Origin: Candidatus Oxydemutator sp.
GTDB taxonomy: Bacteria > Pseudomonadota > Gammaproteobacteria > Poriferisulfidales > Oxydemutatoraceae
Reading direction: 5' to 3'
DNA length: 64,000 bases
Assembly (NCBI GenBank): GCA_965203445.1
Contig: OZ241883.1
Span: forward strand, 352,001-416,000
The notes under the pieces were generated by a model. The model saw nothing but the letters and a program-made list of their open reading frames with translations. It did not search any database and was not told where the DNA came from. Below, piece after piece: positions 6,151 through 64,000 of the stretch (its first letter is position 1; each line of letters opens with the position of its first letter). A program made the position numbers and the translations under genes.

Positions 6151-6338
6151 GCGGTACTTATCCGCGCGGCATTATAAAGGGACTTGCATGGAGATTATAT
6201 ACACGGCCACACAAAGACTTGGCGACAGTGGACGGTGGTTGCCAGTGCGTGAAGCGTCGAATTACAAAACGGCGCCTGTTCATTATTTTCCCTCGCCCTC
6301 ACCCGGCCCGCGGCAGACCCTCCCAGAGGGAGGGGATT

Positions 6339-31823: not shown

Positions 31824-34800
31824 CTACGCGGCGCGCAACAGGCTCGCCATCAGCGCGCCGAGTTCGGCCGCCTTCGGCTTGATCAGCCAGAAGCGCGCGA
31901 GGAAGGCGGAGAAGTCTTCTGCCACCTGCCGTCCCCAGTCGCTGGCGGTGCGCCCGACGTAGTCGGACAGCAGCGAGTGCAGGTACTGGCGCTGGCGCTC
32001 CATACCCTCGACGTCCATGCGGAAGGTCTCGACCAGTTCGTGGTTGTAGCGGTCGCTGAAAGCGCCGTCGAGATCGAGCACCCAGGCGATGCCGCCGGTC
32101 ATGCCGGCGCCGAAGTTCAGGCCGGTGGCGCCGAGCACCGCGACCACGCCGCCGGTCATGTATTCGCAGCCGTGGTCGCCGACGCCCTCGGCCACGGCGA
32201 CGGCACCGGAGTTGCGCACCGCGAAACGCTCGCCGGCACGGCCCGCGGCGAACAACCTGCCGCCGGTGGCACCGTAGAGGCAGGTGTTGCCGACGATGGT
32301 CGTGTCGCGCGATGCGGTCGTCGCGCTCGGCGGCGGGCGGATTACGATTTCGCCGCCGGCCATGCCCTTGCCGACGTAATCGTTGGCGTCGCCCACCAGG
32401 TGCAAGTGCACGCCGCCGGCGTTCCACGCGCCGAAACTCTGCCCGGCGGTGCCTTCGAGGTGTATCGCCAGCGGCGCGTCGGCCATGCCGTGGTTGCCGT
32501 GGCGCCTTGCGACCTCGCCGGAGACGCGCGCGCCTATCGAGCGGTTGACGTTGGTAATTTTGTAATGGAACTCGCCGCCGCTGCCGTTCTCGATTGCGGC
32601 GCGCGCGTCGCGTACCATGCGCTCGGCGACTTCGCCCTTGTCGGCGGGCGGGTTGTCGGGCTTGCGGCAAAAGCGCGGCCGGTGCGCGGCGACGCCGGCG
32701 TCGCCTAATAGCGGCGACAGATCGAGCACGCCGCGCGGCGCCGCGTGCCCGACCTCGGCTTCAGCCGCGACGCGCAGCAACTCGGTGCGCCCGATCAGCT
32801 CCTCGAAGGTGCGCGCGCCCAGCGCGGCCATGTGTTCGCGCGTCTCGCGCGCGACGAACAGAAAGTAGTTCCTGACCATCTCGGCCTGGCCGATGAAATG
32901 ATCGCGCCGCAGTATCTTGTCCTGGGTGGCGACGCCGGTGGCGCAGTTGTTCAGGTGGCAGATGCGCAGGTACTTGCAGCCGAGCGCGACCATCGGCGCG
33001 GTACCGAAACCGAAGCTGTCGGCGCCTAAGATCGCGGCCTTGACTATGTCCAGGCCGGTCTTCAAGCCGCCGTCGGTCTGTACGCGCACCTTGTCGCGCA
33101 GGTTGTTGGCGCGCAGCGCCTGGTGCGTTTCCGGCAGGCCCAGTTCCCACGGCGCGCCCGCGTATTTGATGCTGGTCAGCGGGCTGGCGCCGGTGCCACC
33201 GTCGTAGCCGGAAATCGTGATCAGGTCGGCGTAGGCCTTGGCGACGCCGACGGCGATGGTGCCGACGCCGGCCTCGGCCACCAATTTGACCGACACCAGC
33301 GCCCCGGGGTTGACCTGTTTCAGGTCGAAGATCAACTGCGCCAGATCCTCGATCGAGTAAATGTCGTGGTGCGGCGGCGGCGAGATCAACGCGATGCCCG
33401 GGTTGGCGTAGCGCAGCCTGGCGATCATCGCGTTGACCTTGTGCCCGGGCAGCTGGCCGCCCTCGCCGGGTTTCGCGCCTTGCGCGATCTTGATTTGCAA
33501 CACCTCGGCGTCCGTCAGGTAATGAGGCGTGACGCCGAAGCGCCCGGAGGCAACCTGCTTGATCTTCGACGCGCGCGCGGTGCCGAAACGCGCCGGGTCC
33601 TCGCCGCCCTCGCCCGAGTTCGAGCGCCCGCCGAGGCCGTTCATCGCCAGCGCCAGGGCCTCGTGCGCCTCCGGCGACAATGCGCCCAGCGACATGCCGG
33701 CGGTGTCGAAACGCCTGACGATTTCCTCGGCGGACTCGACCTCGGCGAGCGCGACCGGCTCGCAATCGTCGCGCAGGCGCAGCAGATCCCGAAACACCAT
33801 CGGCGGGCGGTTGTTGACGGCGTCGGCGAAGACACGATAGTCGTCGTAGTCGCCGCCCTGCACCGCGCGGTGCAGGCTGTGCACGACGTCGGGGTTGAAC
33901 GCGTGGTACTCGCCGTCGTGGGTGTACTTGAGCAGGCCGCCCTGTTGCAGCGGACGGCGCGCGTTCCACGCCCGCCACGCCAGCTTCAGCTGATCGTCCT
34001 TGAGGTCGGAGAAGCGCGCGCCCTGCACGCGGCTGACGGTGCCTTTGAAACACAGTTCGACGACCTCGTCGTGCAGGCCGACGATCTCGAACAACTGCGC
34101 GCCGCGGTAGCTGGCGACGGTCGAGATTCCCATCTTCGAAAGGATCTTATACAGCCCCTTGTTGACGCCGGCGCGGTACGAGACCGCGAGCGCGTCGGGC
34201 GCGAGCTCGGGGGCGATCTCGCCGCGGCGGCGCATACCGTCCAGGATCTGAAAAGCCAGGTACGGATACACCGCCGTCGCGCCGTAACCGATGAGCACCG
34301 CGAAGTGGTGCGGGTCGCGCGCGAAGCCGGTCTCGATCAGCAGGTTGGCGTCGCAGCGCAGGCCGTCGGCGATCAGGCGGTGGTGCACCGCGCCGCACGC
34401 GAGCGCGCCGTGTATCGGCAGGCGCCCGCGCGCGACGGCGCGGTCGGACAGCACCACGAGGATCACCCCGTCGTCGCGCACCGAGGCGCTGACGTCGTCG
34501 CACAGACGCCCGACGGCGGCGCGCAGATCCTCGCCCTCGTCGTAGTGCAGATCGAAGACCCGATGCGGGTAGCCTTGCTCGAGAATCCTGGCGAACTTGT
34601 ATTCGGACAGCACCGGCGAGTCTATGACCAGGCGGTCGGCGTGGTCGCCCAGTTCCTCGAACGGGTTCAGCTCGCGCCCGAGCGTCGTCTCCAGCGACAT
34701 CACGATGCGCTCGCGCAGCGGGTCAATCGGCGGGTTTGTGACCTGCGCGAACTGCTGGCGGAAATTGTCGAACGGCGAACGCACCTCGCGCGACAACACC

Positions 34801-36314
34801 GGCAGCGGCGTGTCGTCGCCCATCGAGCCGACCGCCTCCTGGCCGGCGCGCGCGAGCACCTTGATGACCTGGTCCTGCTCCTCGAACGAGACGCCGAACA
34901 TCTTCTCGTACATCCGCAGGCGCTTGTCCGAGAACGGTTCCGCGACGAGCGCGTCGGCGGCCGCAACAGCCGGCAGACGACGCACGCGCCGGTCGAGCCA
35001 GCGGCGGTACGGGTGGCGCTTTTTCAGGCGCTCGTCTATCGCCGCGGGCGCCAGCAACTCGCCGCTTGCGGTATCCACCGCGAGCATCTCGCCCGGCCTG
35101 AGGCGCCCCTTGGCTGTGACCTCGTCGGGCGCGTAATCATAGACGCCGATCTCCGAGGCCAGCGTGATGTGGCGGTCGCGCGTGATCACGTAGCGCGCCG
35201 GACGCAGGCCGTTGCGATCCATCACGCAGGCGGCGTAGCGGCCGTCGCTCAGCACGACGCCGGCGGGCCCGTCCCACGGTTCCATGTGGATCGCGTTGTA
35301 TTCGTAAAACGCCTTCAAGTCGGGGTCCATGTGGGTCACGTTCTGCCACGCCGGCGGGATCAAGAGACGCATCGCGCGAAACACGTCCATGCCGCCCATC
35401 ATCAAAACTTCGAGCATGTTGTCGAGGCTGCACGAGTCGGAACCATCCATCGAGACCAGCGGCAACAGTTGTGCAAGGTCGGGCAGGTGCGCGCTCTTGA
35501 AGATAGAAGCGCGCGCCTGCGCCCAGTTGCGGTTGCCGCCTATCGTGTTGATCTCGCCGTTGTGGGCGAGGAAGCGAAACGGCTGCGCCAGACGCCACTG
35601 CGGCCACGTGTTGGTCGAGAAACGCTGATGGAAGACACAGATCGAGGCCGCGAGCGACTCGTCGTTGAGGTCCCGGTAGAACGTCGGCAGGTTGTCCGGC
35701 ATGACCAGCCCCTTGTAGGACAGGGTGCGCGCCGACAGACTGGCGACGTAGAACACCGGGTCAATCGGCGCGCGCGCGATCTCGGCGCGCCGGCGGGCGA
35801 CGAACAGGCGGCGCTCGAAATCATCCTCGCCGGCGCCGTCGGGCGCGCCGACGAAGATCTGTTCGATGCGCGGTAGCGTCGCCAGCGCGTCGCGCCCACA
35901 CGCCGAAGGATCCACCGGCACCTCGCGCCAACCCGCCACCGTAAGGCCCTCGTCGCGCACCGCCTGCTCCAGACCGCGCCTGCCGGCGGCGGCGGCCTTC
36001 GGATGCAGGAACACCTGGCCGACCGCGAACCTCGCCGGCGGCGAAAAACCAGCCTCGCGCGCCTTGCCCCGCATGTAGTCCGACGGCATTTTCAGCAGCA
36101 GGCCGCAACCGTCGCCGGTCTTGCCGTCGGCTGCGACCGCGCCGCGATGGGTGAGCCGGCCAAGCGCGTGAATCGCGGTGCGCACCAGCCAGTGACTGGC
36201 ATGCCCGTCCATCTGCGCAATCAGGCCGAAACCGCAGCTGTCCTTCTCGAACTCGGGCCGAAGCAGGCCCCGAGACGATCCCCGAAGAGGGCTATCCACC
36301 GGTGTTTTTTGCAT
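31824..36314 (-). CDS. gltB: Glutamate synthase large subunit
   Basis: [38 protein letters not shown]; start ATG 36314. Confidence 0.98.
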
Positions 36315-36710
36315 AATTATAAGTAACCGCTCCCGACCGGCCAGTATAGCACCGCAACGCACCCGGGGGCGGGGGAACACCGATGGCGAACCAGGCGGCG
36401 CGCATGACAAAGACGGCTTTGTCGGCCAGCCTTCCCTTGTGGGAAAGCATGCCCTGCCCACACGTGGTGATAGAGGAGTTTTCCGTTAGAACACGCCAGA
36501 TAGATGATGAAAAATTGCGATTGGATACGTCTGAGGGCCGACGAGAAAACTCACGCAAAGGCCTGCATCCTCTCTATCCCACACCTGACGAAACCGAGTG
36601 AGCACGCTCGCGGTGTCACGCGCCTCTCCCAGAAGGAGAGGAAGAGCGCTTGTATCCTCACTTCTTCCGGAGAAACAAAAAAGAAGGGATACATCGCTCT
36701 CCCTCTGAAT

Positions 36711-38621: not shown

Positions 38622-41066
38622 GTGTTTTTCAAAACCCTGTTCGGATTGGCGGGCCTGCTTTTGTCGCTGCTCATACTGCTCACGGTCGCGGTCATAGGCG
38701 CCTACGCCTGGGTCGCGTCCGACCTGCCGTCCGCCGAGGCCGTGCGCAACGTCCAGCTGCAAACGCCGCTCAGGGTGCACGCGCGCGGCGGCGAAGTCAT
38801 CGCCGTATTCGGCGACAAGCGGCGCAAGCCGGTCTCGTACGAGCAGGTGCCGGAGCGCATGATCGAAGCCTTTCTCGCGGCCGAGGACGACCGCTTCTTC
38901 GAGCACCCCGGCGTGGACTACATGGGGCTGATACGCGCCGCGCTCGAGCTGATACGCACCGGCAAAAAAACACAGGGCGGCAGCACCATCACGATGCAGC
39001 TGGCGCGCAACTTCTTCCTGACGAACCAGCGCACCTACGAGAGAAAGATCAAGGAGATTTTTCTGGCGCTGCGCATCGAGCGGCTGTTCAGCAAGGAGGA
39101 AATCCTGAGCCTCTACCTGAACAAGATCTTTCTCGGCAAGCGCGCCTACGGCGTGGCCGCGGCGGCCGAGGTGTATTACGGCAAGGACGTCGCCGAACTG
39201 ACGCTGGCGCAGACCGCGATGCTCGCGGGAATGCCGAAGGCGCCGTCGGTCTCCAATCCGCTGACCAATCCCGACAAGGCGCTGGAGCGGCGCAACTACG
39301 TGCTGAAGCGGATGCACGAACTCGACAAAATCAACGTATCGGAATACGCCGAGGCGCTCGCCGCCGGCATTACCGCGACGCCGCACAGCCTGCAAGTCGA
39401 GCTGAAGGCGCCCTACGTCGCCGAGATGGTGCGCAAGGAAATGCTCGAGCGCTACGGCGAGGAGGCCTACACCGGCGGCTTTACGGTGCGCACGACGGTG
39501 GACTCCGAGTTGCAACGCCACGCCCAGGCCAGCTTGCGCAAGGGGCTGCTCGCGTACTCCAGACGCCACGGCTGGATCGGCACCGAGGGGCGCGTGGCGG
39601 TGGACGTGGCGAACGACCCGACGGCGCTTGCGCGCGAACTCAATGCGCTCGCGGTGGTCGGCGGCCTGGAACCGGGCATCGTCGTCGGCGTCGAGGGGCG
39701 AACGCTGCACGTCGCCGTCAAGAACGGCGACGTCGTGGCGCTCGATGCCGCCGGATGGCAGTGGGCGCGACCACGCCTCGCGGGCGGCCGGGTCGGCGCG
39801 CGCCCCGAAAACGCCGCGGCCGTGGCCGCCGTCGGCGACGTAGTGCGCGTCTTTGGCGACGACGAGACGCGGCGGCTTGCGCATATCCCCGAAGTCGGCG
39901 GCGCGCTGGTCGCGCTCGCGCCCGACAGCGGCGCGATCATCGCGCTCACCGGCGGCTTCGACTTCTACCACAGCAAGTTCAACCGCGCGACCCAGGCCAA
40001 GCGCCAACCCGGATCGAGTTTCAAGCCCTTCGTGTACTCGGCGGCGCTCGGCAACGGCCTCACGCCGGCGACCATCATCAAGGACACGCCGGTCGTGTTC
40101 ACCGACCCCAACAACCGCGCTTGGCGCCCGCAAAACTATAGCGGCAAATTCTACGGCCCGACGCGCCTGCGCGAGGCGCTCCAATTCTCGCGCAACCTGG
40201 TGTCGGTCAAACTGGTGGATCAGATCGGCGTCGAGCAGACGCTCGACTACGTGCGACGCTTCGGCTTTCAGCGCGCGGATCAGCCGCGCAATCTGACGCT
40301 GGCCCTGGGTTCCGGCACCGCCACCCCGCTCGAGATCGCTCGCGGCTACGCCGTTTTTGCCAACGGCGGGTTTCTCGTGAAGCCGTATCTGATAGACAAA
40401 ATCACGGTCCTAGACGAAACCGTATTCGCCGCGGAACCGTTGGCGCTTTGCACCGAAGGTTGTGCGATCTATCCGTACGACGACGCGCCTGAGGACGCCG
40501 ATGAGGGTACGCCCGAGGATGCGGACGCGGACGTGAACGACGGCACACGCACCGCGTCCATGGAAACGCCCGACGCGCAATACGCGCCGCGCGCGATTCC
40601 GTCCGACGTCGCCTATCAGATGACGAGCATGATGCGGGGCGTGATCCGCCACGGCACCGGACGCCGCGCGCGCACCCTGAGACGAGACGACGTCGCCGGC
40701 AAGACCGGCACCACGAACGAGCAGCGCGACGCCTGGTTCTCCGGCTTCAACCGCGACCTGGTCGGCACCGTCTGGGTCGGCTTCGACGACCACAAGCCGT
40801 TGGGCGAACGCGAGACCGGCGCGGTCGCCGCGCTGCCGACGTGGATAGACTTCATGCGCAAGGCGCTCGCCGACAAGCCGGAACGCCCCTACTACAAACC
40901 CCCCAACATCGTCTCCGCGCGCATAGACCCCGAAAACGGCCTGCTCGCGCACCCCGGCGACGAAAACGCCATCAGCGAAACCTTCCGCATGCGCCACCTG
41001 CCCAAAAAAATCACAAAACCGGCCAAAGAGGGAGAATCATCGGCGGAAACGGAAGGGTTGTTTTAG
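38622..41066 (+). CDS. mrcA: Penicillin-binding protein 1A
   Basis: AEDDRFFEH, GGSTITMQL, QPGSSFKP (SxxK), SRN, KTGT; GTG start approximate. Confidence 0.97.
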   Translation: MFFKTLFGLAGLLLSLLILLTVAVIGAYAWVASDLPSAEAVRNVQLQTPLRVHARGGEVIAVFGDKRRKPVSYEQVPERMIEAFLAAEDDRFFEHPGVDYMGLIRAALELIRTGKKTQGGSTITMQLARNFFLTNQRTYERKIKEIFLALRIERLFSKEEILSLYLNKIFLGKRAYGVAAAAEVYYGKDVAELTLAQTAMLAGMPKAPSVSNPLTNPDKALERRNYVLKRMHELDKINVSEYAEALAAGITATPHSLQVELKAPYVAEMVRKEMLERYGEEAYTGGFTVRTTVDSELQRHAQASLRKGLLAYSRRHGWIGTEGRVAVDVANDPTALARELNALAVVGGLEPGIVVGVEGRTLHVAVKNGDVVALDAAGWQWARPRLAGGRVGARPENAAAVAAVGDVVRVFGDDETRRLAHIPEVGGALVALAPDSGAIIALTGGFDFYHSKFNRATQAKRQPGSSFKPFVYSAALGNGLTPATIIKDTPVVFTDPNNRAWRPQNYSGKFYGPTRLREALQFSRNLVSVKLVDQIGVEQTLDYVRRFGFQRADQPRNLTLALGSGTATPLEIARGYAVFANGGFLVKPYLIDKITVLDETVFAAEPLALCTEGCAIYPYDDAPEDADEGTPEDADADVNDGTRTASMETPDAQYAPRAIPSDVAYQMTSMMRGVIRHGTGRRARTLRRDDVAGKTGTTNEQRDAWFSGFNRDLVGTVWVGFDDHKPLGERETGAVAALPTWIDFMRKALADKPERPYYKPPNIVSARIDPENGLLAHPGDENAISETFRMRHLPKKITKPAKEGESSAETEGLF

Positions 41067-41091
41067 GAGTCAGGGAGCCTGAGCGCGGTGG

Positions 41092-41575
41092 TGGCCTTCC
41101 CCCACAATCAGAGTCACGCGATTTGAAAGATTTTCCTATAATTTTGACCATAGGAGGTCTCGCTATGAAACACAATCGGTTCAGTGAGGAACGGATCATA
41201 TCTATCCTCAAGGAATATGAGGCGGGCGCGCGCATGGCGGATTTGTCTCGCAAGCACGGGGTCAGCGAGCAGAGTCTCTATCGCTGGAGGTCGAAGTATG
41301 AGGGGATGAGCGTAAGCGAGGCGAAGCGCTTGAGGCAGTTGGAGAGGGAGAACGCCAAGTTGAAGCACCTGCTGAAAGAGGCGAGATTAGACAAAAAGGC
41401 GCTGAAAGAGTTGTTGTCAAAAGATTGGTAACGCCCGAGGCGCATCGTGAGCATGGCTTGCAGGTGCGCCGGCGGCGGAGCAAGAAGCTGTCGCGCCCGC
41501 GCATGGTCAGGCCGGCACTGGGTGCTGCAAACCAGCGTGGGAGAATCGGGTACAATACACCTCGCTCGGACGGGT
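41092..41575 (+). mobile_element. IS3-family (IS407-group-like) remnant, copy 1: left end, intact orfA 41165-41431, internally deleted orfB
   Basis: TGGCCTTCCCCC end; orfA MKHNRFSEERII...YRWRSKY...RLRQLEREN; orfB scraps GLQVRRRR..ANQR. Confidence 0.85.
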
Positions 41576-41622
41576 ATGTGCCGGTCCGCATAAACACCAG
41601 CATCTGACAGGAGGACACACCG

Positions 41623-41847
41623 ATGAAAAAAGCCAATGCTGCTCGCCATATGAGAGAAACACCTCTGGGATGCTACGAGGTTGACGAGGAATTGGAAGCA
41701 AAAATGAAGAGAATGGCCAAAATGAAGCTGTCAAAAGAGGAGAGGCGGGCACAGGCAATCTCCTGGGTTTATGGCAACTTGCCGATAGATTCTGAGCGGA
41801 CCATAGAGGACGTCGCCAAGTTTCTTGAGGAGCACGAAGGTTTGTGA
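41623..41847 (+). CDS. Small protein upstream of fic, putative Fic antitoxin (copy 1)
   Basis: AGGAGG RBS; ERRAQAISWVYGN; stop overlaps the fic start (GTGA). Confidence 0.65.
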   Translation: MKKANAARHMRETPLGCYEVDEELEAKMKRMAKMKLSKEERRAQAISWVYGNLPIDSERTIEDVAKFLEEHEGL

Positions 41848-42452
41848 TCCTGCACCATCTCCTCGGAGGAGAGCAGCATCGCATATACGCCGACCTTTCC
41901 GACGGCAATCTTTTCAGGCAATACGGTTTTCTACAATCTGCCGTGGCCGCGGCGATAAACGTCAAACGGCCGCTGGTCTCAGCGACGCTTATCAAAGCGT
42001 TGAATTATCATGCTATCGCGTGCCTGCATCCCAATGCCGGGGAATACCGCCCCTGTCCAGTGAAGGCGGGAGACTATGAACCGCCGGAGCATTTTCACGT
42101 GCCGGAGATGATGAACGACTTTATCAATGTAGCCAACCGGAATTGGGATGCCTGTGACACACATACCCTGGCCGCGTATTGTCTCTGGCGCCTGAATTTC
42201 ATCCATCCATTTATTAACGGAAACGGCAGAACGGCGCGCGCGCTTTGTTACTTTGTCGTCTGCGTCAAGTCTGGCGGTCTGATACAGGGCGAACCAATGC
42301 TGCCAACGTTGATTCGAGAAAGGCATGAAGAATATAGAAAATTACTAAGCTCCACTGACAGAGAGGCCGAAAACGGAAATCCAGACTACTTGAATGGTTT
42401 GCGTGACTTTGTCGCCCGTCTGGTGGAACGGCAATTACGATCCGCGACCTGA
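41844..42452 (+). CDS. Fic-domain protein (copy 1)
   Basis: HPFINGNGRTARAL Fic motif; AGEYR. Confidence 0.92.
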   Translation: MILHHLLGGEQHRIYADLSDGNLFRQYGFLQSAVAAAINVKRPLVSATLIKALNYHAIACLHPNAGEYRPCPVKAGDYEPPEHFHVPEMMNDFINVANRNWDACDTHTLAAYCLWRLNFIHPFINGNGRTARALCYFVVCVKSGGLIQGEPMLPTLIRERHEEYRKLLSSTDREAENGNPDYLNGLRDFVARLVERQLRSAT

Positions 42453-42467
42453 AGGTTCGGCGGATGA

Positions 42468-42630
42468 TGCCGGCGGCATAGTCCGCTGCATGAACTCGTC
42501 GAACAACGGCACCGTGAACGCGGTATCGCCGTGCTGTGACGCCAATGTCTCGCAACAGTGAGTTTCGACCTGCCAATGCGAGGGGAAGATAGCCGGCACC
42601 AAGCGCATAGGGGCTGTTGGTCGCATCCAT
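42468..42630 (-). pseudogene. Internally deleted paralog of the 60154-61344 ATPase (5' and 3' ends fused)
   Basis: MDATNSPYALGAGYLPLALAGRNSLL joined out of frame to HGDTAFTVPLFDEFMQRTMPPAS. Confidence 0.85.
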
Positions 42631-42756
42631 TTACAAGGAGTTTAACCCGGTTTATGGAAATTTCATAAACCGGGGTAAACTCCTTATAACTCCAATAATT
42701 CCGCGTTATATCAACGCAGAATAAATCCGTCGGATCTCGCCTGTCAGATGATCAAG

Positions 42757-43240
42757 TGACCTTCCCCCACAATCAGGGCCACGCGATGGGAGAGATTTTC
42801 CTATAATTTCGACCATAGGAGGTCTCACTATGAAACACAATCGGTTCAGCGTGGAACGGATCATATCTATCCTCAAGGAATACGAGGCGGGCGCGCGCAT
42901 GGCGGATTTGTCTCGCAAGCACGGGGTCAGCGAGCAGAGTCTCTATCGCTGGAGGTCTAAGTATGGGAGGATGAGCGTAAGCGAGGCGAAGCGCTTGAGG
43001 CAGTTGGAGAGGGAGAACGCCAAGTTGAAGCACTTGCTGAAAGAGGCGAGATTAGACAAGAAAGCGCTGAAGGAGTTGTTGTCAAAAGATTGGTAACGCC
43101 CGGGGCGCGTCGTGAGCAAGGCTTGCAGGTGCGCCGGCGGCGGCGCAAGAAGCTGTCGCGCCCGCGCATGGTCAGGCCGGCACTGGGTGCTGCAAACCAG
43201 CGTGGGAGAATCGGGTACAATGCACCCCGCTCGGACGGGG
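42757..43240 (+). mobile_element. IS3-family remnant, copy 2 (orfA 42830-43096)
   Basis: TGACCTTCCCCC end; near-identical to copy 1. Confidence 0.85.
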
Positions 43241-43287
43241 ATGTCCCGTCCCGCAAAAACACTGGCATCTGACAGGAGGACACACCG

Positions 43288-43524
43288 ATGAAAAAAGCCA
43301 ATGCTGCTCGCCATATGAGAATGACACCTGCGGACTCGCCTCTGGGATGCTGCGAGTATGACGAGGAATTGGAAGCAAAAATGAAGAAAATGGCCAAAAT
43401 GAAGCTGTCAAAAGAGGAGAGGCGGGCACAGGCAATCTCCTGGGTTTATGGCAACCTGCCGATAGATTCTGAGCGGACCATAGAGGACGTCGCCAAGTTT
43501 CTTGAGGAGCACGAAGGTTTGTGA
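43288..43524 (+). CDS. Putative Fic antitoxin (copy 2)
   Basis: Near-identical to 41623-41847 and 4 aa longer. Confidence 0.65.
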   Translation: MKKANAARHMRMTPADSPLGCCEYDEELEAKMKKMAKMKLSKEERRAQAISWVYGNLPIDSERTIEDVAKFLEEHEGL

Positions 43525-44129
43525 TCCTGCACCATCTCCTCGGAGGAGAGCAGCATCGCATATACGCCGACCTTTCCGACAGCAATCTTTTAAGGCAATA
43601 CGGTTTTCTACAATCTGCCGTGGCCGCGGCGATAAACGTCAAACGGCCGCTGGTCTCAGCGACGCTTGTCAAAGCGTTGAATTATCACTCTATCGCGTGC
43701 CTGCATCCCAATGCCGGGGAATACCGCCCCTGTCCAGTGAAGGCGGGAGACTATGAACCGCCGGAGCATTTTCACGTGCCGGAGATGATGAACGACTTTA
43801 TCAACGTAGCCAACCGGAATTGGGATGCCTGTGACGCACCGTCTCTGGCCGCGTATTGTCTATGGCGCCTGAATTTCATCCATCCGTTTATTAACGGAAA
43901 CGGCAGAACGGCGCGCGCGCTTTGTTACTTTGTCGTCTGCGTCAAGTCTGGCGGTCTGATACAGGGCGAACCAATGCTGCCAACGTTGATTCGAGAAAGG
44001 CATGAAGAATATAGAGAATTACTAAGATCCACCGACAGAGAGGCCGAAAACGGAAATCCAGACTACTTGAATGGTTTGCGTGACTTTGTCGCCCGCTTGG
44101 TGGAACGGCAATTACGATCCGCGACCTGA
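43521..44129 (+). CDS. Fic-domain protein (copy 2)
   Basis: HPFINGNGRTARAL; 9 of 202 residues differ from copy 1. Confidence 0.92.
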   Translation: MILHHLLGGEQHRIYADLSDSNLLRQYGFLQSAVAAAINVKRPLVSATLVKALNYHSIACLHPNAGEYRPCPVKAGDYEPPEHFHVPEMMNDFINVANRNWDACDAPSLAAYCLWRLNFIHPFINGNGRTARALCYFVVCVKSGGLIQGEPMLPTLIRERHEEYRELLRSTDREAENGNPDYLNGLRDFVARLVERQLRSAT

Positions 44130-44175
44130 AGGTTCGGCGGATGATGCCGGCGGCATAGTCCGCTTGCAGAATAAA

Positions 44176-44244
44176 TCCGGCGGACGTCGCCTGTCGGATG
44201 ATGGGCATGGTGCGGGGCGTGATCCGCTTTGGCACTGGACGGCG
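44176..44244 (+). pseudogene. Decayed internal fragment of mrcA
   Basis: 57/69 nt identical to 40598-40666 (manual ungapped alignment). Confidence 0.85.
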
Positions 44245-49067: not shown

Positions 49068-49140
49068 CTACACCTCCAAAACCCGCAACCTTTCAAGGCC
49101 GCGGTCGTCCACCGTTTTAACGGCCATGTGTTTGTGCTTG
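49068..49140 (-). pseudogene. Decayed copy of the mod 3' end
   Basis: KHKHMAVKTVDDRGLERLRVLEV* vs mod EHKRIAVKIVDDRGVESLRVVNL*; 49/60 nt match 57436-57495. Confidence 0.88.
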
Positions 49141-49180
49141 CGACCTGCCCCCTGAATCAGGGCCACAGCCATTGGAGAGA
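49141..49180. mobile_element. Solo IS3-family terminal inverted repeat
   Basis: gacctgccccctgaatcagggccac matches the IS end at 42758 in 22/25 nt. Confidence 0.75.
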
Positions 49181-49192
49181 ATGCCCATTGTA

Positions 49193-49309
49193 TCAGGCCA
49201 CCCCCCACGAGAAAGTCCTGGTCTCCACTGAACGACGCCAATGCGCACGCGGCTCCTCACAGGAGGAATTGAGGATGAGGTGGGTTATTTGCTCTGTATT
49301 GCCGGACAT
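49193..49309 (-). pseudogene. Decayed copy of the res 5' end (38 codons)
   Basis: MSGNTEQITHLILNSSCEEPRAHWRRSVETRTFS vs res MSGNVEKPSPLILNSPYEEPREHWFHSRETKAFS (21/34 aa). Confidence 0.88.
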
Positions 49310-54742: not shown

Positions 54743-57426
54743 TAACCGTATTTGCGTCCGCGCATCTCAAAGGCCGCCTTGCCGCCTTCCAGTATCTTGG
54801 CCGCCTGCTTGCGTACTGCCGGTTTATCAATGGAACCCGCCTCCTTGACTTTCCCCTTGTCCTTTTCGCTGTGCAATACCGCGATCAATTCGGCATCACC
54901 AAAAACTGGAATATTGGCGTTGTGGGTTGCAAAAATGAACTGTCGGCCAGTCTTGAACTTTCTCAAGTCACGTACAATCCGATCGGCGATGAAGGCGTTA
55001 TCCAAGTTATCCTCCGGCTGATCAATAATCAATGGATCATCACGGTTTAATAGCAGCAGGTTCAAAATAGCAGTACATTGTTGACCAGTGGAAAGGCTGT
55101 CCAGCGGTTTATACTCCTCGCCGTCATGCGCGATATTCAATTCGATCTCAATTTTATCCTCCAATTCAATCTCTTCCAGCTCGAGTCTTTTCTTCAAATC
55201 CAGCCTTGATAATTTTTCAGCGGTACTTTTTTGCATTCCGACAGACCTGTATTCCTTCATAAAGGCCTCTACATTTCCTTTCTCTGCCCATTTTGACCAA
55301 GCCAACAGGTTCAAATCGGCTACTTCATCCAGCCATTTTATTCTGGCTTCGCCTATACCCCCAATATCGAGCAAAAAAACTTTCAGTGGTTGCAGATCGC
55401 CAAAACGTTTTACAGTAAGTCTCACTTTCCCTTTCAAGTCATTTTCATTTAAATTCTCTACGGCTTCTTGCAGAGCCCTATATCGCTCAAAGGCAGTTTG
55501 GCGATATTCTTCCATAAGATCTTCTCTTTCTTTTTTAAGAACCCCGATCAACTGCTTTTGGCGACGGTGCTCTTCTTTTTGTCTGTCTATACGTCTCAGC
55601 TCCTCGATAATGTCCGTGTATTCCTGCCCCAATTCGCTACCTGGCTTTCCTGATTGTTCCGGCAACTGGGCCTTTACCTGACGCAGATCATCTTCGATTT
55701 TCTCGACCTCGCTTTCCCATTCTTTTTCTAATGCAGCGAGTTCATTGGAAGTGTCCTCCAAGCTTTTATCCGCTTGCTCAACCATACCGTCCGTTTGTTC
55801 CTTCAGCCTCTCAAGTGCTCCTCGCATCTTTGCCAGGATAACTCTGTCGGGTAGTGCGCTGATTCTGGATTCCTGCAAGAATTCCAAGTCAAATACTTCC
55901 TCATACCTTTTCAGCCAATCCTTGACTAGCGCAACCTGCTCCTTGACACGTGCCTGGATATTTTTTTCCTTTCCGACCAGATCAACCTTTTTCAATTTCT
56001 TGCTTACACCCAGATCTTCAAAACGCTTCAATTGTTCCTGCAGCATCGGTATCCGCTGAACGGAACTATCCAGATTTTCAAACTCTTTGTCCGCCTTAAT
56101 CCATTTTTCTCTATTGTCCGCCATTCGTTTCCTGCTTTCCCGAAGACTTCCATCAAACTTATCCCTACCAGATAAAAAGCCGTTCATCAGCTCCCGCTTG
56201 GCTGTATCGTTTTCTACGATTTCCAGGATCTCATTCTGTCCCAACAATGTAACGGCAGGCAAAATTTCTTTCGAACTAAGATTAGAAACTTCGCCATTCT
56301 TGTTTTTCACGATGGCCCGTTCGCCAAAACGCCTGCTGATCGTGTAACACTGGCTCGACTGCGCCCTCGATTTGACGCTTAGGGTAATTTTTGAATCGCC
56401 CAGATTTTTTTTATAAAACTCATTGGATACCTTGCTTCCCTCCGACACGTACCGTTCCAGGACGTAGCGTATGCCTTCAATCAGAGTTGTTTTACCAGTG
56501 CCACGGCCACCGATAACGGCATTTAAATTTGGGGAGAAATAGAGTGTATTTTCCTCAAAAAATCCTTTGCCTTTGCCTTCCCATTGAATGGAACTGATAA
56601 CTGAATAAGAAGGCTCTGCAATATCATGATTCAATCGGATGCGGGATTCAGGATCGTGGAACGCCTGCCTGAAAGCCTCAAAACTGGGTTCGGTCATTTT
56701 CACTAGGCAGGATGCAGAAGTATCTGACAGTGTTTCAGGCTTATCTATATCCTTGGCATTGATAATGACGATAGGCTTTTCTCTTTTGTAATCAAGATTT
56801 TTGTTTTCTATGATTTTCCTGTATCTAGCTAAATCTTCTTTTTCCAACTGTAAGTCTTCTATACGTCCGGGAATTTGTCCGACGATTACTACTTTCTCTT
56901 TTTTCCACAAATGTACGAGGTTTCCGCCACTGCCGTCTAATCTCAATAAGCCATTCTTACCGGTCATATGTGCGGCGTACCAGAAGCCGTTTTGCTCATC
57001 TATTTTTTTAGCAATATCTTCGCAGCTTAATGAGGAAGGGTGGGTTGGTTCGCACTGAAGCTGGGCGTAGTTTGTGCCCATCAACTGGGCAAGATGCCCG
57101 TTGAGGCTATCCAAGGGAGTATCTTCAGCATAAAGACAAACCATATGAATATTCTCGGAACTGGAAATCTCAAACCCCGGAAACACGGTGAGATCTTTAT
57201 CTCGATCCCGCAAAAAGTTCCGTAGGCCTTCCGAGTCTTTAACTCCTCCGTGATCTGCAAGTCCTACAACTTTGATTTTATTCTGTTTGCATTGCCACAA
57301 TACTTCCTGGTTGTAATTTTCTGCGCTCGATTTTGGCTGTCCCCGATACTCCAGGCCGTAGGTACAGGGATTAACCTGCAATGCACACTTGTAAAAGCGT
57401 GCTCCCTGATATTCCTCGTTATTCAT
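54739..57426 (-). CDS. PHP-like domain plus SMC/ABC ATPase (TrlF/Ppl-like)
   Basis: N-terminal ADH, FPGFE, H-containing PHP-type motifs; GGRGTGKT, coiled coil, LSTGQ, IIDQPEDNLD, ATHN; ATGA overlap with mod. Confidence 0.85.
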   Translation of the reverse strand: MNNEEYQGARFYKCALQVNPCTYGLEYRGQPKSSAENYNQEVLWQCKQNKIKVVGLADHGGVKDSEGLRNFLRDRDKDLTVFPGFEISSSENIHMVCLYAEDTPLDSLNGHLAQLMGTNYAQLQCEPTHPSSLSCEDIAKKIDEQNGFWYAAHMTGKNGLLRLDGSGGNLVHLWKKEKVVIVGQIPGRIEDLQLEKEDLARYRKIIENKNLDYKREKPIVIINAKDIDKPETLSDTSASCLVKMTEPSFEAFRQAFHDPESRIRLNHDIAEPSYSVISSIQWEGKGKGFFEENTLYFSPNLNAVIGGRGTGKTTLIEGIRYVLERYVSEGSKVSNEFYKKNLGDSKITLSVKSRAQSSQCYTISRRFGERAIVKNKNGEVSNLSSKEILPAVTLLGQNEILEIVENDTAKRELMNGFLSGRDKFDGSLRESRKRMADNREKWIKADKEFENLDSSVQRIPMLQEQLKRFEDLGVSKKLKKVDLVGKEKNIQARVKEQVALVKDWLKRYEEVFDLEFLQESRISALPDRVILAKMRGALERLKEQTDGMVEQADKSLEDTSNELAALEKEWESEVEKIEDDLRQVKAQLPEQSGKPGSELGQEYTDIIEELRRIDRQKEEHRRQKQLIGVLKKEREDLMEEYRQTAFERYRALQEAVENLNENDLKGKVRLTVKRFGDLQPLKVFLLDIGGIGEARIKWLDEVADLNLLAWSKWAEKGNVEAFMKEYRSVGMQKSTAEKLSRLDLKKRLELEEIELEDKIEIELNIAHDGEEYKPLDSLSTGQQCTAILNLLLLNRDDPLIIDQPEDNLDNAFIADRIVRDLRKFKTGRQFIFATHNANIPVFGDAELIAVLHSEKDKGKVKEAGSIDKPAVRKQAAKILEGGKAAFEMRGRKYGY

Positions 57427-60070: not shown

Positions 60071-60165
60071 GCTATCGCGTGCCTGCATCCCACTGCCGGG
60101 GAATACCGCCCCTGCCTGGTGAGGGCGGAAAGCTATGAACCGCCGGAGCATTTTCACGTGCCGGA
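60071..60165 (+). pseudogene. Third, fragmentary copy of fic
   Basis: AIACLHPTAGEYRPCLVRAESYEPPEHFHVPE vs fic AIACLHPNAGEYRPCPVKAGDYEPPEHFHVPE (42012-42106). Confidence 0.9.
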
Positions 60166-61344
60166 ACTTGCCGGCGGCATAGCCCGCTGCATGAACTCGT
60201 CGAACAGCGGCACCGTGAACGCGGTATCGCCGTGTTTCGGACTGTAGATCATGCCTTTCGCTATGAGGCTGCCGCGACGCGGTGCGACGGCTCGAACGTC
60301 TTTGTTCATTCGAGCGGCGATTTCTCTGGATTTGTGAGGACCAGACCCTAGTTCCGCCATCGCTCTAAGGTATTCTCTCTCACGCGGAGTGCAGCGGTCG
60401 TAACGGACGCGAAAGAACCCCACGTCCAGCCGGTCCAAGGCATGGACGGTGGCGGTCTCGACGTCCGACAGCGTGATGGTTTCCCCCTTTGCGACCAGCC
60501 AGGATTGAGAACCCCACTCCTGGAGAAAATAAGGGTAGCCCTGCGTCTGCGACAGGATTTCCCGCAAAGCGGGCGCCTCAAAAGACACCCCCTCGCGTTC
60601 GGCGGGATCCTGTATCGCATAACGCGCCGCCTCGTCGTCCAGTTTTCCGATCTCTGAAAACTCGAACAATCGTTCCGCATAGGACTTGGCCTTGCCAACG
60701 TCTCTGATCAGTTGCGGCAGCCCGGCCCCGATGACGGTGACGGGCCGCTGCTTCTGCTGGCATTTGTGCAAAGCCGTAATCAATGCCTCCAACTGACTTT
60801 CCTTCACGTACTGAAGCTCGTCAATGAAAATGGCGATGGCGGTTTTTTTCTCCTTCGCCGCCTCGCCGATGGCGCAGAGTAGATCGGGCAGGTCCGTTTC
60901 GAGCTTGCCCGTGTTGGCAATGCCGGAACCACCGTCGATCTCGAGACGCACCGTTACGTCTTTGTATTTCACTCGCACACTGTTGAGGAAGTCGGCAAAA
61001 GCATGCCACGCTTTCATCACGTAGCCTCTTGCCTTCTCGTACGGATCCAGCGCGGTAAGGGTCTTGCGCAATTCCGGAACCAGCAGCGAGGGCAAAGAGT
61101 ATTTTTCCAGCATCTCCAGTTGCAGGCAGACAATACCGCGGGTTTGCGCATCTTCGGCAATGCGGTTCAGGAGCACGGTTTTACCGACACCTCGGAGCCC
61201 GATATAGAGAATACCGTTCACGTGGCGCCCGGCGAGAAGCCGCTTTGAGTTGACGATGGCGGTTTCCAGCAGCGAAGCTCGGCCCGCCAATGCAGGGGGA
61301 GTACGGCCGGCACTGGGCACATAGGGGTTTTTAACTGCATCCAT
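60154..61344 (-). CDS. AAA+ ATPase (AAA_16-like) with probable C-terminal winged helix
   Basis: NPY..AG, GLRGVGKT, IFIDELQ, GYPYFLQ; C-terminal EIAARM...RGSLIAKGMIY. Confidence 0.88.
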   Translation of the reverse strand: MDAVKNPYVPSAGRTPPALAGRASLLETAIVNSKRLLAGRHVNGILYIGLRGVGKTVLLNRIAEDAQTRGIVCLQLEMLEKYSLPSLLVPELRKTLTALDPYEKARGYVMKAWHAFADFLNSVRVKYKDVTVRLEIDGGSGIANTGKLETDLPDLLCAIGEAAKEKKTAIAIFIDELQYVKESQLEALITALHKCQQKQRPVTVIGAGLPQLIRDVGKAKSYAERLFEFSEIGKLDDEAARYAIQDPAEREGVSFEAPALREILSQTQGYPYFLQEWGSQSWLVAKGETITLSDVETATVHALDRLDVGFFRVRYDRCTPREREYLRAMAELGSGPHKSREIAARMNKDVRAVAPRRGSLIAKGMIYSPKHGDTAFTVPLFDEFMQRAMPPASSGT

Positions 61345-61710
61345 TTATAAGAATTTTACCCTGTTTTATGAGATCTTGATAAACTGGGGTAAAAATTTTA
61401 TAAATAGCTGGCGCCAAGCGCATAGGGGCTGTTGGCCACGTCCATTTATAAGAAGTTTATCCTGTTTTATGGGATTTTGATAAAATGGGGTAAAAAATTT
61501 ATAAACAGCTGGCGCCAAGCGCATAGGGGCTGTTGGCCACGTCCATTTATAAGAATTTTACCCTGCTTTATGAGATTTTGATAAAATGGGGTAAAAAATT
61601 TATAAATAGGCGGCGCCAAGCGCATAGGGGCTGTTGGCCGCGTCCATTTATAAGAAGTTTATCCTGGTTTATGGGATTTTGATAAACTGGGGTAAAAATT
61701 TTATAAATAG
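61340..61710. repeat. Four tandem 101-bp units, each a ~63-bp AT-rich imperfect palindrome; three also carry a copy of the ATPase start
   Basis: ccatttataa recurs at 61341, 61442, 61543 and 61644. Confidence 0.95.
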
Positions 61711-61727
61711 AATTATTCCGCGTTATA

Positions 61728-62795
61728 TCAGCGTGCGCCGGCGTGCACCGCGTCCACCAGCACCGCTACTTTGGCCGGGTCGGTCTGCTTGAGGACGCCG
61801 TGCCCCAGGTTGAACACGTGGCCGGGAGCGGCGCCGAACTCTTCGAGGATGCGGCGGGTCTCGGCGCGGATGACTTTTTCCGAGGCGAGCAGCGCGGTCG
61901 GGTCGAGGTTGCCCTGGAGCGCAACCGTCGCACCGACGCGGCGTCTGGCGTCGCCCAAGTGCATGCTCCAGTCGAGGCCGAGTGCGTCGCAGCCGGCGGC
62001 GGCCATGTCTTCCAGCCACGCGCCGCCGCCCTTCGTGAACAGGATGACCGGCGCGTCGCGGCGGCTTTTCAGCTTCGCAATCGCGCGGCGCGCCGGCGCC
62101 AGCGAAAAGCGCCGGTAGCGGTCGCCCGACAGCACGCCGCCCCAGGTGTCGAAAATCATCACGCAATCGGCGCCGGCTGCTATCTGCGCGTCGAGATACG
62201 CGGCCACCGATTCGGCCAGCACCTCCAGCAGCCGTTCGAGCAACGCCGGGCGGTCGAACATCATTTGTTTTATCACCCGGAAGTCGCGCGACGCGCGGCC
62301 CTCGACCATGTAGGCGGCGAGCGTCCACGGGCTGCCCGCAAAACCGATCAGCGGCACGCGCCCGGCGAGCGCGCGACGCAACAGGCGGACGGCCTCCATC
62401 ACGTAGGCCAGGTCTTCGTCGGGGGCCGGCGCGCGCAGTGCGTTTATGTGCGCCTCGTCGCGCACCGGGCGCGCGAAATACGGGCCTTCGTTTTCCCGAA
62501 AGCCCAACCCCAGCCCCATCGCATCGGGGATCGTCAGGATGTCCGAAAACACTATCGCGGCGTCGAGCGGATAGCGTTCGACGGGTTGCAGGCTGACCTC
62601 GCAGGCCAGTTCCGGCGTCTTGCACAACGTCAGAAAATCGCCGGCGCGTTCGCGCGCGCGACGGTACTCGGGCAGATAGCGCCCGGCCTGGCGCATCAAC
62701 CAGACGGGCGTGGCGTCCACCGGCTGGCGGCGCAGCGCGCGCAGCAGGCGGTCGTTGTCCGGCGGGGCGTTGTCCGGCGGGGCAGTTCCCGGCAT
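61728..62795 (-). CDS. hemE: Uroporphyrinogen decarboxylase
   Basis: [35 protein letters not shown]. Confidence 0.98.
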
Positions 62796-62800
62796 ACGCT

Positions 62801-64000
<1,200 letters not shown>

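Follow-up and report, generated by a model that had tools for sequence, protein, structure and literature searches.

What does a fourfold-repeated palindrome do in front of a bacterial ATPase gene, and does it belong to this one locus or to the gene wherever it occurs? In the window (the whole 64,000-nucleotide stretch of Candidatus Oxydemutator sp. contig OZ241883.1 analyzed here), a tandem array lies in the gap that separates the hemE stop from the gene of a 396-aa ATPase, and a first-pass annotation had read it as a multi-site operator for an oligomeric autoregulator, amplified as a tunable promoter or decoy array. Judged by sequence comparison, the palindrome is a family-wide element standing before this ATPase gene in many bacteria; this family-wide operator, together with a solitary ATPase, is our main finding, and the fourfold repeat only revealed it.

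Palindromes and boxes in the window

The array of four 101-bp units that had been described is present and, at 3.7 copies, it holds four palindromes yet only three full units. The features needed for what follows are these:

61340–61710: 101-bp tandem array (TRF: period 101, 3.7 copies, 92% matches)
61343–61405: palindrome copy 1, six phased boxes, abuts the ATPase ATG (model score 41.3)
61444–61506: palindrome copy 2, weakest symmetry, without a promoter call (model score 34.6)
61545–61607: palindrome copy 3, with a −35/−10-like site at 61584–61555 (model score 33.4)
61646–61708: palindrome copy 4, outermost, without a promoter call (model score 42.0)
42629–42691: fifth palindrome, precedes a deleted ATPase paralog (model score 38.8)
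60154–61344, minus strand: 396-aa AAA+/STAND-type ATPase with a C-terminal winged helix
44280–60011, minus strand: co-directional defense run behind the ATPase (context; possibly co-transcribed)

Three TTTA boxes (61344, 61355 and 61365) face three TAAA boxes (61380, 61390 and 61401) at a 10/11-bp phase in unit 1, just as the first-pass annotation had it, and the six-box model described below finds five strong sites in the 64-kb window, every one of them before an ATPase start or stub. Array copies 1 to 4 are symmetric at 46, 40, 46 and 44 of 63 positions (23, 20, 23 and 22 of 31 pairs) and the fifth palindrome at 54 of 63 (27 of 31), against a window background of 8.3 ± 2.7 of 31 over 63,920 centers; the fifth palindrome is the top-symmetry center of the window, and the weakest array copy, with 20 pairs, equals three unrelated centers. 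The earlier remark that this fifth copy keeps pairing is right, but its box set includes just two TAAA. Compared with unit 1 it carries 17 differences, with only 2 mirror pairs altered on both sides, so its better pairing reflects mostly one-sided rather than compensatory changes.

Of 59 palindrome positions, 3–6 differ between array copies, distributed like a mosaic, which argues that the array is no echo of the assembly, and the four copies diverge by 5–10%, so the array has persisted for some time, something not required of an array without use. Two left-arm and two right-arm alleles appear among the four palindromes in every possible pairing (too few sites for a test), as if exchange had taken place near the palindrome center.

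A six-box palindrome across the ATPase family

A GTDB scan gave at least 595 confirmed homologues among 600 stretches, from which we took the best 80 loci (50–56% identity), spanning 13 phylum groups; the closest homologues are 60–99% identical, and operator copy counts rest on the 80 loci at 50–56%. We trained a six-box model on half of the loci and tested it on the other half against a background of 9,943 blocks. With box positions seeded from all loci and relatives present in both the training and test halves, the site directly upstream of the ATPase gene exceeded the 99.9th background percentile in 77 of 80 loci and the upstream palindrome was the best site of its locus in 77 of 80, bearing out the idea that homologues share the 3+3 phased palindrome. 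A model-free symmetry test was weaker, with 44 of 80 loci beating all 30 shuffles. In 75 of 80 loci the inner gap has one and the same length, and box spacings are 10 or 11 bp, while the core reads TTA-N11-TAA plus further T/A at ±17 in 64 well-fitted loci, a set from which 7 related, 4 weak and 5 nonstandard-gap loci had been dropped, such that the "invariant" core comes from loci chosen by fit. Among 20 further plasmid and phage homologues (26–54% identity), a significant palindrome is kept in 13 (model-free) with its box sequence altered. A 26% homologue (L095) shows, upstream of position 1459, direct TATAA repeats at a 9–10-bp phase and no clear palindrome.

Additional operator copies are uncommon: 79 of 80 loci have a single upstream operator copy, and a tandem pair occurs in one locus only (L052, two copies). 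An operator-like palindrome follows the ATPase stop in L034, L052 and L073. L073 shows a TTG/CAA variant of the box in both its sites, the second of which lies just ahead of the start of a UvrD-like gene. No neighbor family recurs beyond 5 of 80 loci and there is no conserved partner gene, hence no other gene that the site could serve instead. Our literature search, which covered mostly open-access texts without supplements (where defense-gene prediction tables might list the protein), returned no description of the ATPase or its operator.

Predicted promoter overlap, a probable leaderless start, and symmetry

The site overlaps a predicted promoter, with −35/−10-like hexamers inside the palindrome's right arm. 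In the window, TTATCA-18-TAAAAT occupies 61382–61353 on the minus strand, 8 nt before the ATPase ATG, and −35/−10-like matches are kept in two of the four array copies (1 and 3). Counting consensus matches only, 52 of 80 loci have their best −10-like hexamer 6–8 nt before the ATG, and 7 of 80 have an SD-like motif; an ATG predicted to lie at or near the transcription start makes a leaderless mRNA likely. By comparison, the earlier operator reading is well backed by the conserved site, the promoter overlap and the C-terminal winged helix; that the ATPase would bind and repress at its own operator is the part that we infer from sequence.

Mirror boxes agree at 11.70 of 18 versus 9.66 expected (z 8.7), the cross-box control reaching only z 1.3 and the same-arm control z 2.0, and mirror covariation exceeds a nearest-relative control (16.64 versus 15.44 of 27, Wilcoxon p = 0.0016). 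Mirror agreement is in part lineage, with the excess over the nearest relative remaining, and this excess counts against our best explanation below, since pure protein recognition does not require it. Template switching homogenizes and perfects inverted repeats in proteobacteria without selection, according to one study (PMC5941160), and mirror covariation is therefore no proof of selection for a hairpin. The suggestion that symmetry itself is selected finds partial support only: the arms covary mirror-wise across the family, but template switching of this kind could align inverted repeats without it. Operator similarity correlates with the AAA domain at r 0.43 and with the wHTH at r 0.35; with the former no lower than the latter, co-evolution of operator and wHTH is unsupported.

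The ATPase and its likeness to known systems

As modeled, the ATPase is an AAA+/STAND fold with a C-terminal winged helix, resembling PAB2304, SSO1545 and Orc1/Cdc6. Its sequence maps to Walker A at 49–56 (GLRGVGKT at 49), Walker B at 172–178, R225, GxP at 269–271 and a wHTH at about 310–388; all 119 aligned proteins share K55, D175, E176, R225, P271, P355 and R357, and 109 of the 119 have G269. We read R225 as a candidate arginine finger, and P355-x-R357 lies in a putative recognition helix. GxP is a mark of STAND proteins, whose winged helices often do not bind DNA, a point against the reading of boxes by this one. The AF2 model of the full protein (pLDDT 83.5) matched PAB2304 (2qen; Z 24.2, rmsd 4.3, 321 aligned) and SSO1545 (2fna; Z 23.0) over residues 5–387, and Orc1/Cdc6 (2qby; Z 19.4, rmsd 7.5, 316 aligned), with NLRs, TnsC and MuB also matching; residues 304–392 alone (AF2, pLDDT 85.5) gave winged-helix matches at Z 8–9.4, the top ones including NLR/STAND proteins. 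By Pfam, AAA_16 passes (41.2 bits versus a cut-off of 32.6) and ATPase_2 falls short (30.7 versus 33.2). Domain and fold searches of the ATPase found no nuclease, recombinase, helicase, sensor or effector domain, a PDB sequence search gave weak ORC4 P-loop matches only, one homologue searched in the ESM Atlas fell in unnamed AAA_16/AAA_22 clusters only, and PADLOC 2.0 (2023 library) returned only mad8, weakly (E 5e-6 over the ATPase core).

The best whole-chain fold matches, PAB2304 and SSO1545, are only 14–15% identical and have the same layout of P-loop domain, helical domain with GxP and then winged helix; no cognate DNA site for either turned up among the literature titles searched. In type Ia ParA proteins the Walker A is deviant, the wHTH is N-terminal and ParB acts as a partner. 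The window ATPase differs in its GLRGVGKT Walker A, its AAA+/STAND fold, its C-terminal wHTH and the lack of a recurrent partner, and a type Ia ParA identity was rejected on Walker A, wHTH position and partner. Type Ia ParA is nonetheless the closest "works like" model, being likewise a winged-helix ATPase on its own promoter: as one report describes, six protomers of F plasmid ParA bind as three dimers, cooperatively, on inverted motifs across their own promoter (10.1101/2021.05.10.443373).

Orc1/Cdc6 has the same size and the same AAA+ plus C-terminal wHTH layout as the window ATPase. Orc1/Cdc6 carries a sensor-2 arginine, at the position of which the window ATPase has GYP. The archaeal Orc1/Cdc6 gene lies beside repeated ORB sites, which flank an AT-rich unwinding element, and origins can arrive by horizontal transfer (PMC5333045); unlike ORB origins so described, the palindrome arms with their inner cores are just 11 bp apart and overlap a promoter, with no separate unwinding element found. 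MalT and IniR are STAND ATPases that oligomerize and control promoters, the ATPase domain of IniR having been modeled on SSO1545 (PMC5760070); unlike the window ATPase (396 aa, without sensor or effector), they are large activators of other operons with sensor and LuxR-type domains. BrxR/CapW WYL proteins and CapS are also reported to place a wHTH on palindromes heading defense operons, and differ in having other sensor domains and no such ATPase fold, whereas most loci of this ATPase lie outside defense operons. Iteron plasmid origins have direct 17–22-bp iterons and DnaA boxes beside a rep gene; this identity was rejected on the inverted boxes, a nearest DnaA-box match at 56901 and the lack of a Rep family match.

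Mini-ORFs as gene debris and a duplication scar

Between and beyond the palindromes lie the following pieces:

61398–61445, minus strand: mini-ORF, 5′ stub of a paralog-type ATPase gene, the next palindrome supplying the stop
61499–61546, minus strand: second mini-ORF, 5′ gene stub
61600–61647, minus strand: third mini-ORF, 5′ gene stub, with CTAT at its junction, a microhomology that recurs at the outer flank of the array
42461–42630, minus strand: dead ATPase paralog, in which a deletion has joined 78 nt of the 5′ end (70.5% identical to the intact gene) to a 3′ piece (73 nt, 93%)
61707–61733: flank between the hemE stop and copy 4, recurring upstream of the fifth palindrome at 42689–42716

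The three 15-codon minus-strand ORFs that the first-pass annotation saw ending inside the next palindrome are there, encoding, each up to its stop, MDAANSPYALGAAYL from 61647, MDVANSPYALGASCL from 61546 and MDVANSPYALGASYL from 61445, and they are indeed nearer to the dead paralog (36–38 of 42 nt over codons 1–14) than to the intact ATPase gene (27–28 of 42 nt). The inter-palindrome stretches are gene stubs, 38–41 of 42 nt identical among themselves. A CRISPR-like array was rejected on that identity, the stretches between repeats not being unique spacers. The mini-ORFs are gene debris, that is 5′ gene starts, and not peptides with a role.

Paralog codons 13–15 read ...GGCTATCTT and the array's outer flank reads ...TTCTATTTATAA; the CTAT common to both would explain the 101-bp duplication, whose junction creates the stop codon, and the four-copy array looks like a microhomology tandem duplication. 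This junction falls within 1 nt of the first box. Among the 80 homologue loci, there is no adjacent 5′ stub beside the ATPase gene, and the stub search over these loci gave a single match (L065), distant from the gene. The 27 bp at the fifth palindrome (42689–42716) resemble the hemE stop plus intergenic stretch (61707–61733), which implies that the dead paralog formerly stood behind a hemE gene.

The island around the array

The array heads eight co-directional genes (gaps of 142, −4, −4, 86, 329, 3 and 13 bp), the defense run comprising a type III Mod, TrlF ATPase, Schlafen/RecG-C, DUF4011 helicase, a PD-T4-4-like ATPase with its partner, and a type III Res. Rearrangement has marked this island: an IS3-remnant/small ORF/Fic block is present twice (41091–42487 and 42756–44164, 95% alike), with an extra Fic piece at 60071–60165. 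Within 41091–44244, ATPase remnants follow each IS3/Fic copy and are followed by degenerate fragments like 40598–40666 (82–85%), a segment of the preceding gene, which we take to be penicillin-binding-protein-like. A Mod 3′-end stub (49081–49141, 82%) and a Res 5′-start stub (49208–49309, 75%) lie inside the split type III restriction-modification operon, between two non-ATPase cargo blocks, and suggest repeated recombinational capture. The island is flanked by glutamate synthase genes about 26 kb apart, the large-subunit gene at 31824–36461 and, at 62801–64000, what its translation suggests is the small-subunit gene.

Family distribution and genomic behavior

The family is large, with 8,000 of 8,000 scored candidates and 813 clusters (50% identity) at E values up to 1e-30, and the ATPase occurs in 115 of 72,556 plasmids and 1 of 50,697 phage records. 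When E. coli genomes were searched at the DNA level for a Pantoea homologue, nothing matched. In a neighbor survey that left out L038, together with 2 loci that had no qualifying ORF per side, and in which 93 of 154 picked frames had no Pfam match, 11 of 61 Pfam-annotated neighbors were defense or mobility genes by our own classification, the remainder being metabolic or housekeeping. With these 11 of 61 neighbors and the weak mad8 match, a defense role is thinly supported.

Operator plus gene is enclosed by long direct repeats (96–217 bp or more) in 5 of 74 loci, whereas just 2 of 460 control intervals are so enclosed (Fisher p = 0.0008), 6 short-flank loci having been left out and the controls not being other acquired genes. 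The repeat-flanked loci are L008 (ribD), L039, L052, L067 and L068, their host-DNA repeats being 84–94% identical, and the L008 cassette lies between two ribD starts, one truncated and one complete. The L008 repeat, like that of L067, ends at most 1 nt from the first box. Short target-site duplications were unconvincing (8 nt, 12 of 77 versus 8.2 expected; 9 nt, 5 versus 2.1). In a Vibrio record the ATPase is a cassette between two 127-bp repeats, and the gene appears from its surroundings to occupy an integron in one case and toxin-antitoxin or defense slots in some plasmids. In three sphingomonad plasmids (L101, L102, L103), for instance, the slot after traG holds MqsRA and AbiE, or the ATPase and an AbiE module, or the ATPase with SoxR, HU and CBASS genes, the ATPase sitting upstream of the CBASS genes in the latter. 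At 6195–6800 of L020, after the ATPase stop, the 3′ end of a uvrA-like gene (named by translation) is duplicated in inverted orientation (80%), which could reflect either rearrangement or misassembly.

A quick tree shows the phyla interspersed (26 changes, against a minimum of 12 and 45 when shuffled; 31 of 77 branches open), and this partial mixing fits horizontal transfer and is no proof of it. Gene GC follows host GC (r 0.86), a match that suggests long residence.

Weighing the explanations

Our best explanation, to which we give a probability of about 0.65, is that the palindrome is the promoter-operator of an autorepressed ATPase gene, itself an accessory defense or selfish module, and that the array is a by-product of a recombining island. 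ATPase protomers would oligomerize through the nucleotide-binding domain, each winged helix reading one of the six boxes, which lie three facing three on one face of the DNA helix; the complex would cover the promoter and repress transcription of its own gene, with nucleotide state setting occupancy. A 101-bp piece (operator plus first 14 codons, of the paralog-type allele) would have been tandemly duplicated at the 4-bp CTAT, a different ATPase allele now following the last operator. The extra operator copies probably still bind protein, and the array would be a by-product of a recombining defense island rather than a selected tuning device. For the gene's job, an accessory defense or selfish module kept low by autorepression is most likely, and this is the weakest step.

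The array might instead be a selected device, with stacked promoters or repressor-titrating decoys tuning the 17-kb defense run. It heads eight co-directional genes, all its copies score 33–42 in the model, two retain −35/−10 matches, and other loci have tandem operators (L052) or an operator after the stop (L034, L052, L073); yet 79 of 80 loci are single-copy upstream, the same Mod gene adjoins the ATPase in only 3 of 80, palindromes are as variable as stubs (variable sites at 7 of 59 versus 4 of 42 positions), and the sites at which the four copies vary show no significant avoidance of conserved positions (P = 0.10). We find this unlikely, and the proposed amplification as a tunable promoter or decoy array fares poorly against one tandem locus in 80, no gene-adjacent stubs and that P value. 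Palindrome and ATPase could also form a minimal self-spreading unit, its Orc1/Cdc6- or TnsC-like oligomer opening or stalling DNA at the palindrome so as to cause local duplication, circles and reinsertion with long target duplications, the array being a scar. Long flanking repeats (5 of 74 versus 2 of 460), repeat ends in L008 and L067 and a window junction within 1 nt of the first box, all four arm-allele combinations, intermixed phyla and fold likeness to Orc1/Cdc6, TnsC and MuB speak for it, but it has no nuclease, recombinase or helicase domain and no partner, 69 of 74 loci are without long repeats, short target duplications are not clearly enriched, and the controls were not other acquired genes, with window stubs also surrounding non-ATPase cargo. 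Nor is there a separate unwinding element or a DnaA box near the array, and a single record among 50,697 phages and gene GC that tracks host GC (r 0.86) point the same way, leaving this idea unlikely as well. A combined picture, also unlikely in our estimate, is of a minimal, effector-less selfish or defense element in which an Orc1/TnsC-like oligomer on six boxes would both silence its leaderless promoter and provoke breakage or re-replication there, duplicating and moving the cassette with 100–300 bp of host DNA and leaving the array and the repeat-flanked insertions as footprints.

Far less probable is that the element acts as a DNA cruciform or RNA hairpin, with the mini-ORFs as leader or toxin peptides. 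The mirror-specific covariation (z 8.7) and the folding of the fifth copy (−21 kcal/mol as DNA, −36 as RNA) favor such a structure, but folding of the array copies as DNA is weak (−3.4 to −9.5 kcal/mol), family-wide pairing is about 60%, conservation follows the 10-bp phase and not a stem, the predicted transcription start is downstream of the palindrome, and homologue loci have no adjacent stubs. An Rfam 15 scan of the window gave one tRNA only and no match to the element at gathering score (best local matches 26 bits versus a cut-off of 119), and tRNA/tmRNA scans at the array found nothing; the hairpin-RNA alternative of the first-pass annotation is thus not borne out. An assembly artefact or a plasmid-type iteron origin would account for a short tandem repeat beside a wHTH protein, yet mosaic differences at 3–6 of 59 positions are not expected from a collapsed or expanded assembly, and for the iterons that had also been suggested, the boxes are inverted rather than direct, no DnaA box lies within 4 kb of the array (nearest match 56901) and the flanking genes are chromosomal, such that we give this origin almost no credence.

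Significance

The four-copy array matters less in itself, offering a natural variant for testing operator dosage. What the autorepression reading provides, for a large uncharacterized family of bacterial ATPases, is a cognate DNA site as a prediction and a mechanism open to testing; with its minimal STAND/Orc1-like protein and its phased operator of six boxes, the system would serve as a simple model for ATPase assembly on DNA. Palindrome and ATPase together would constitute a portable module of leaderless autorepression, and they raise the question of why a lone, self-regulated, effector-less ATPase is kept across many phyla.
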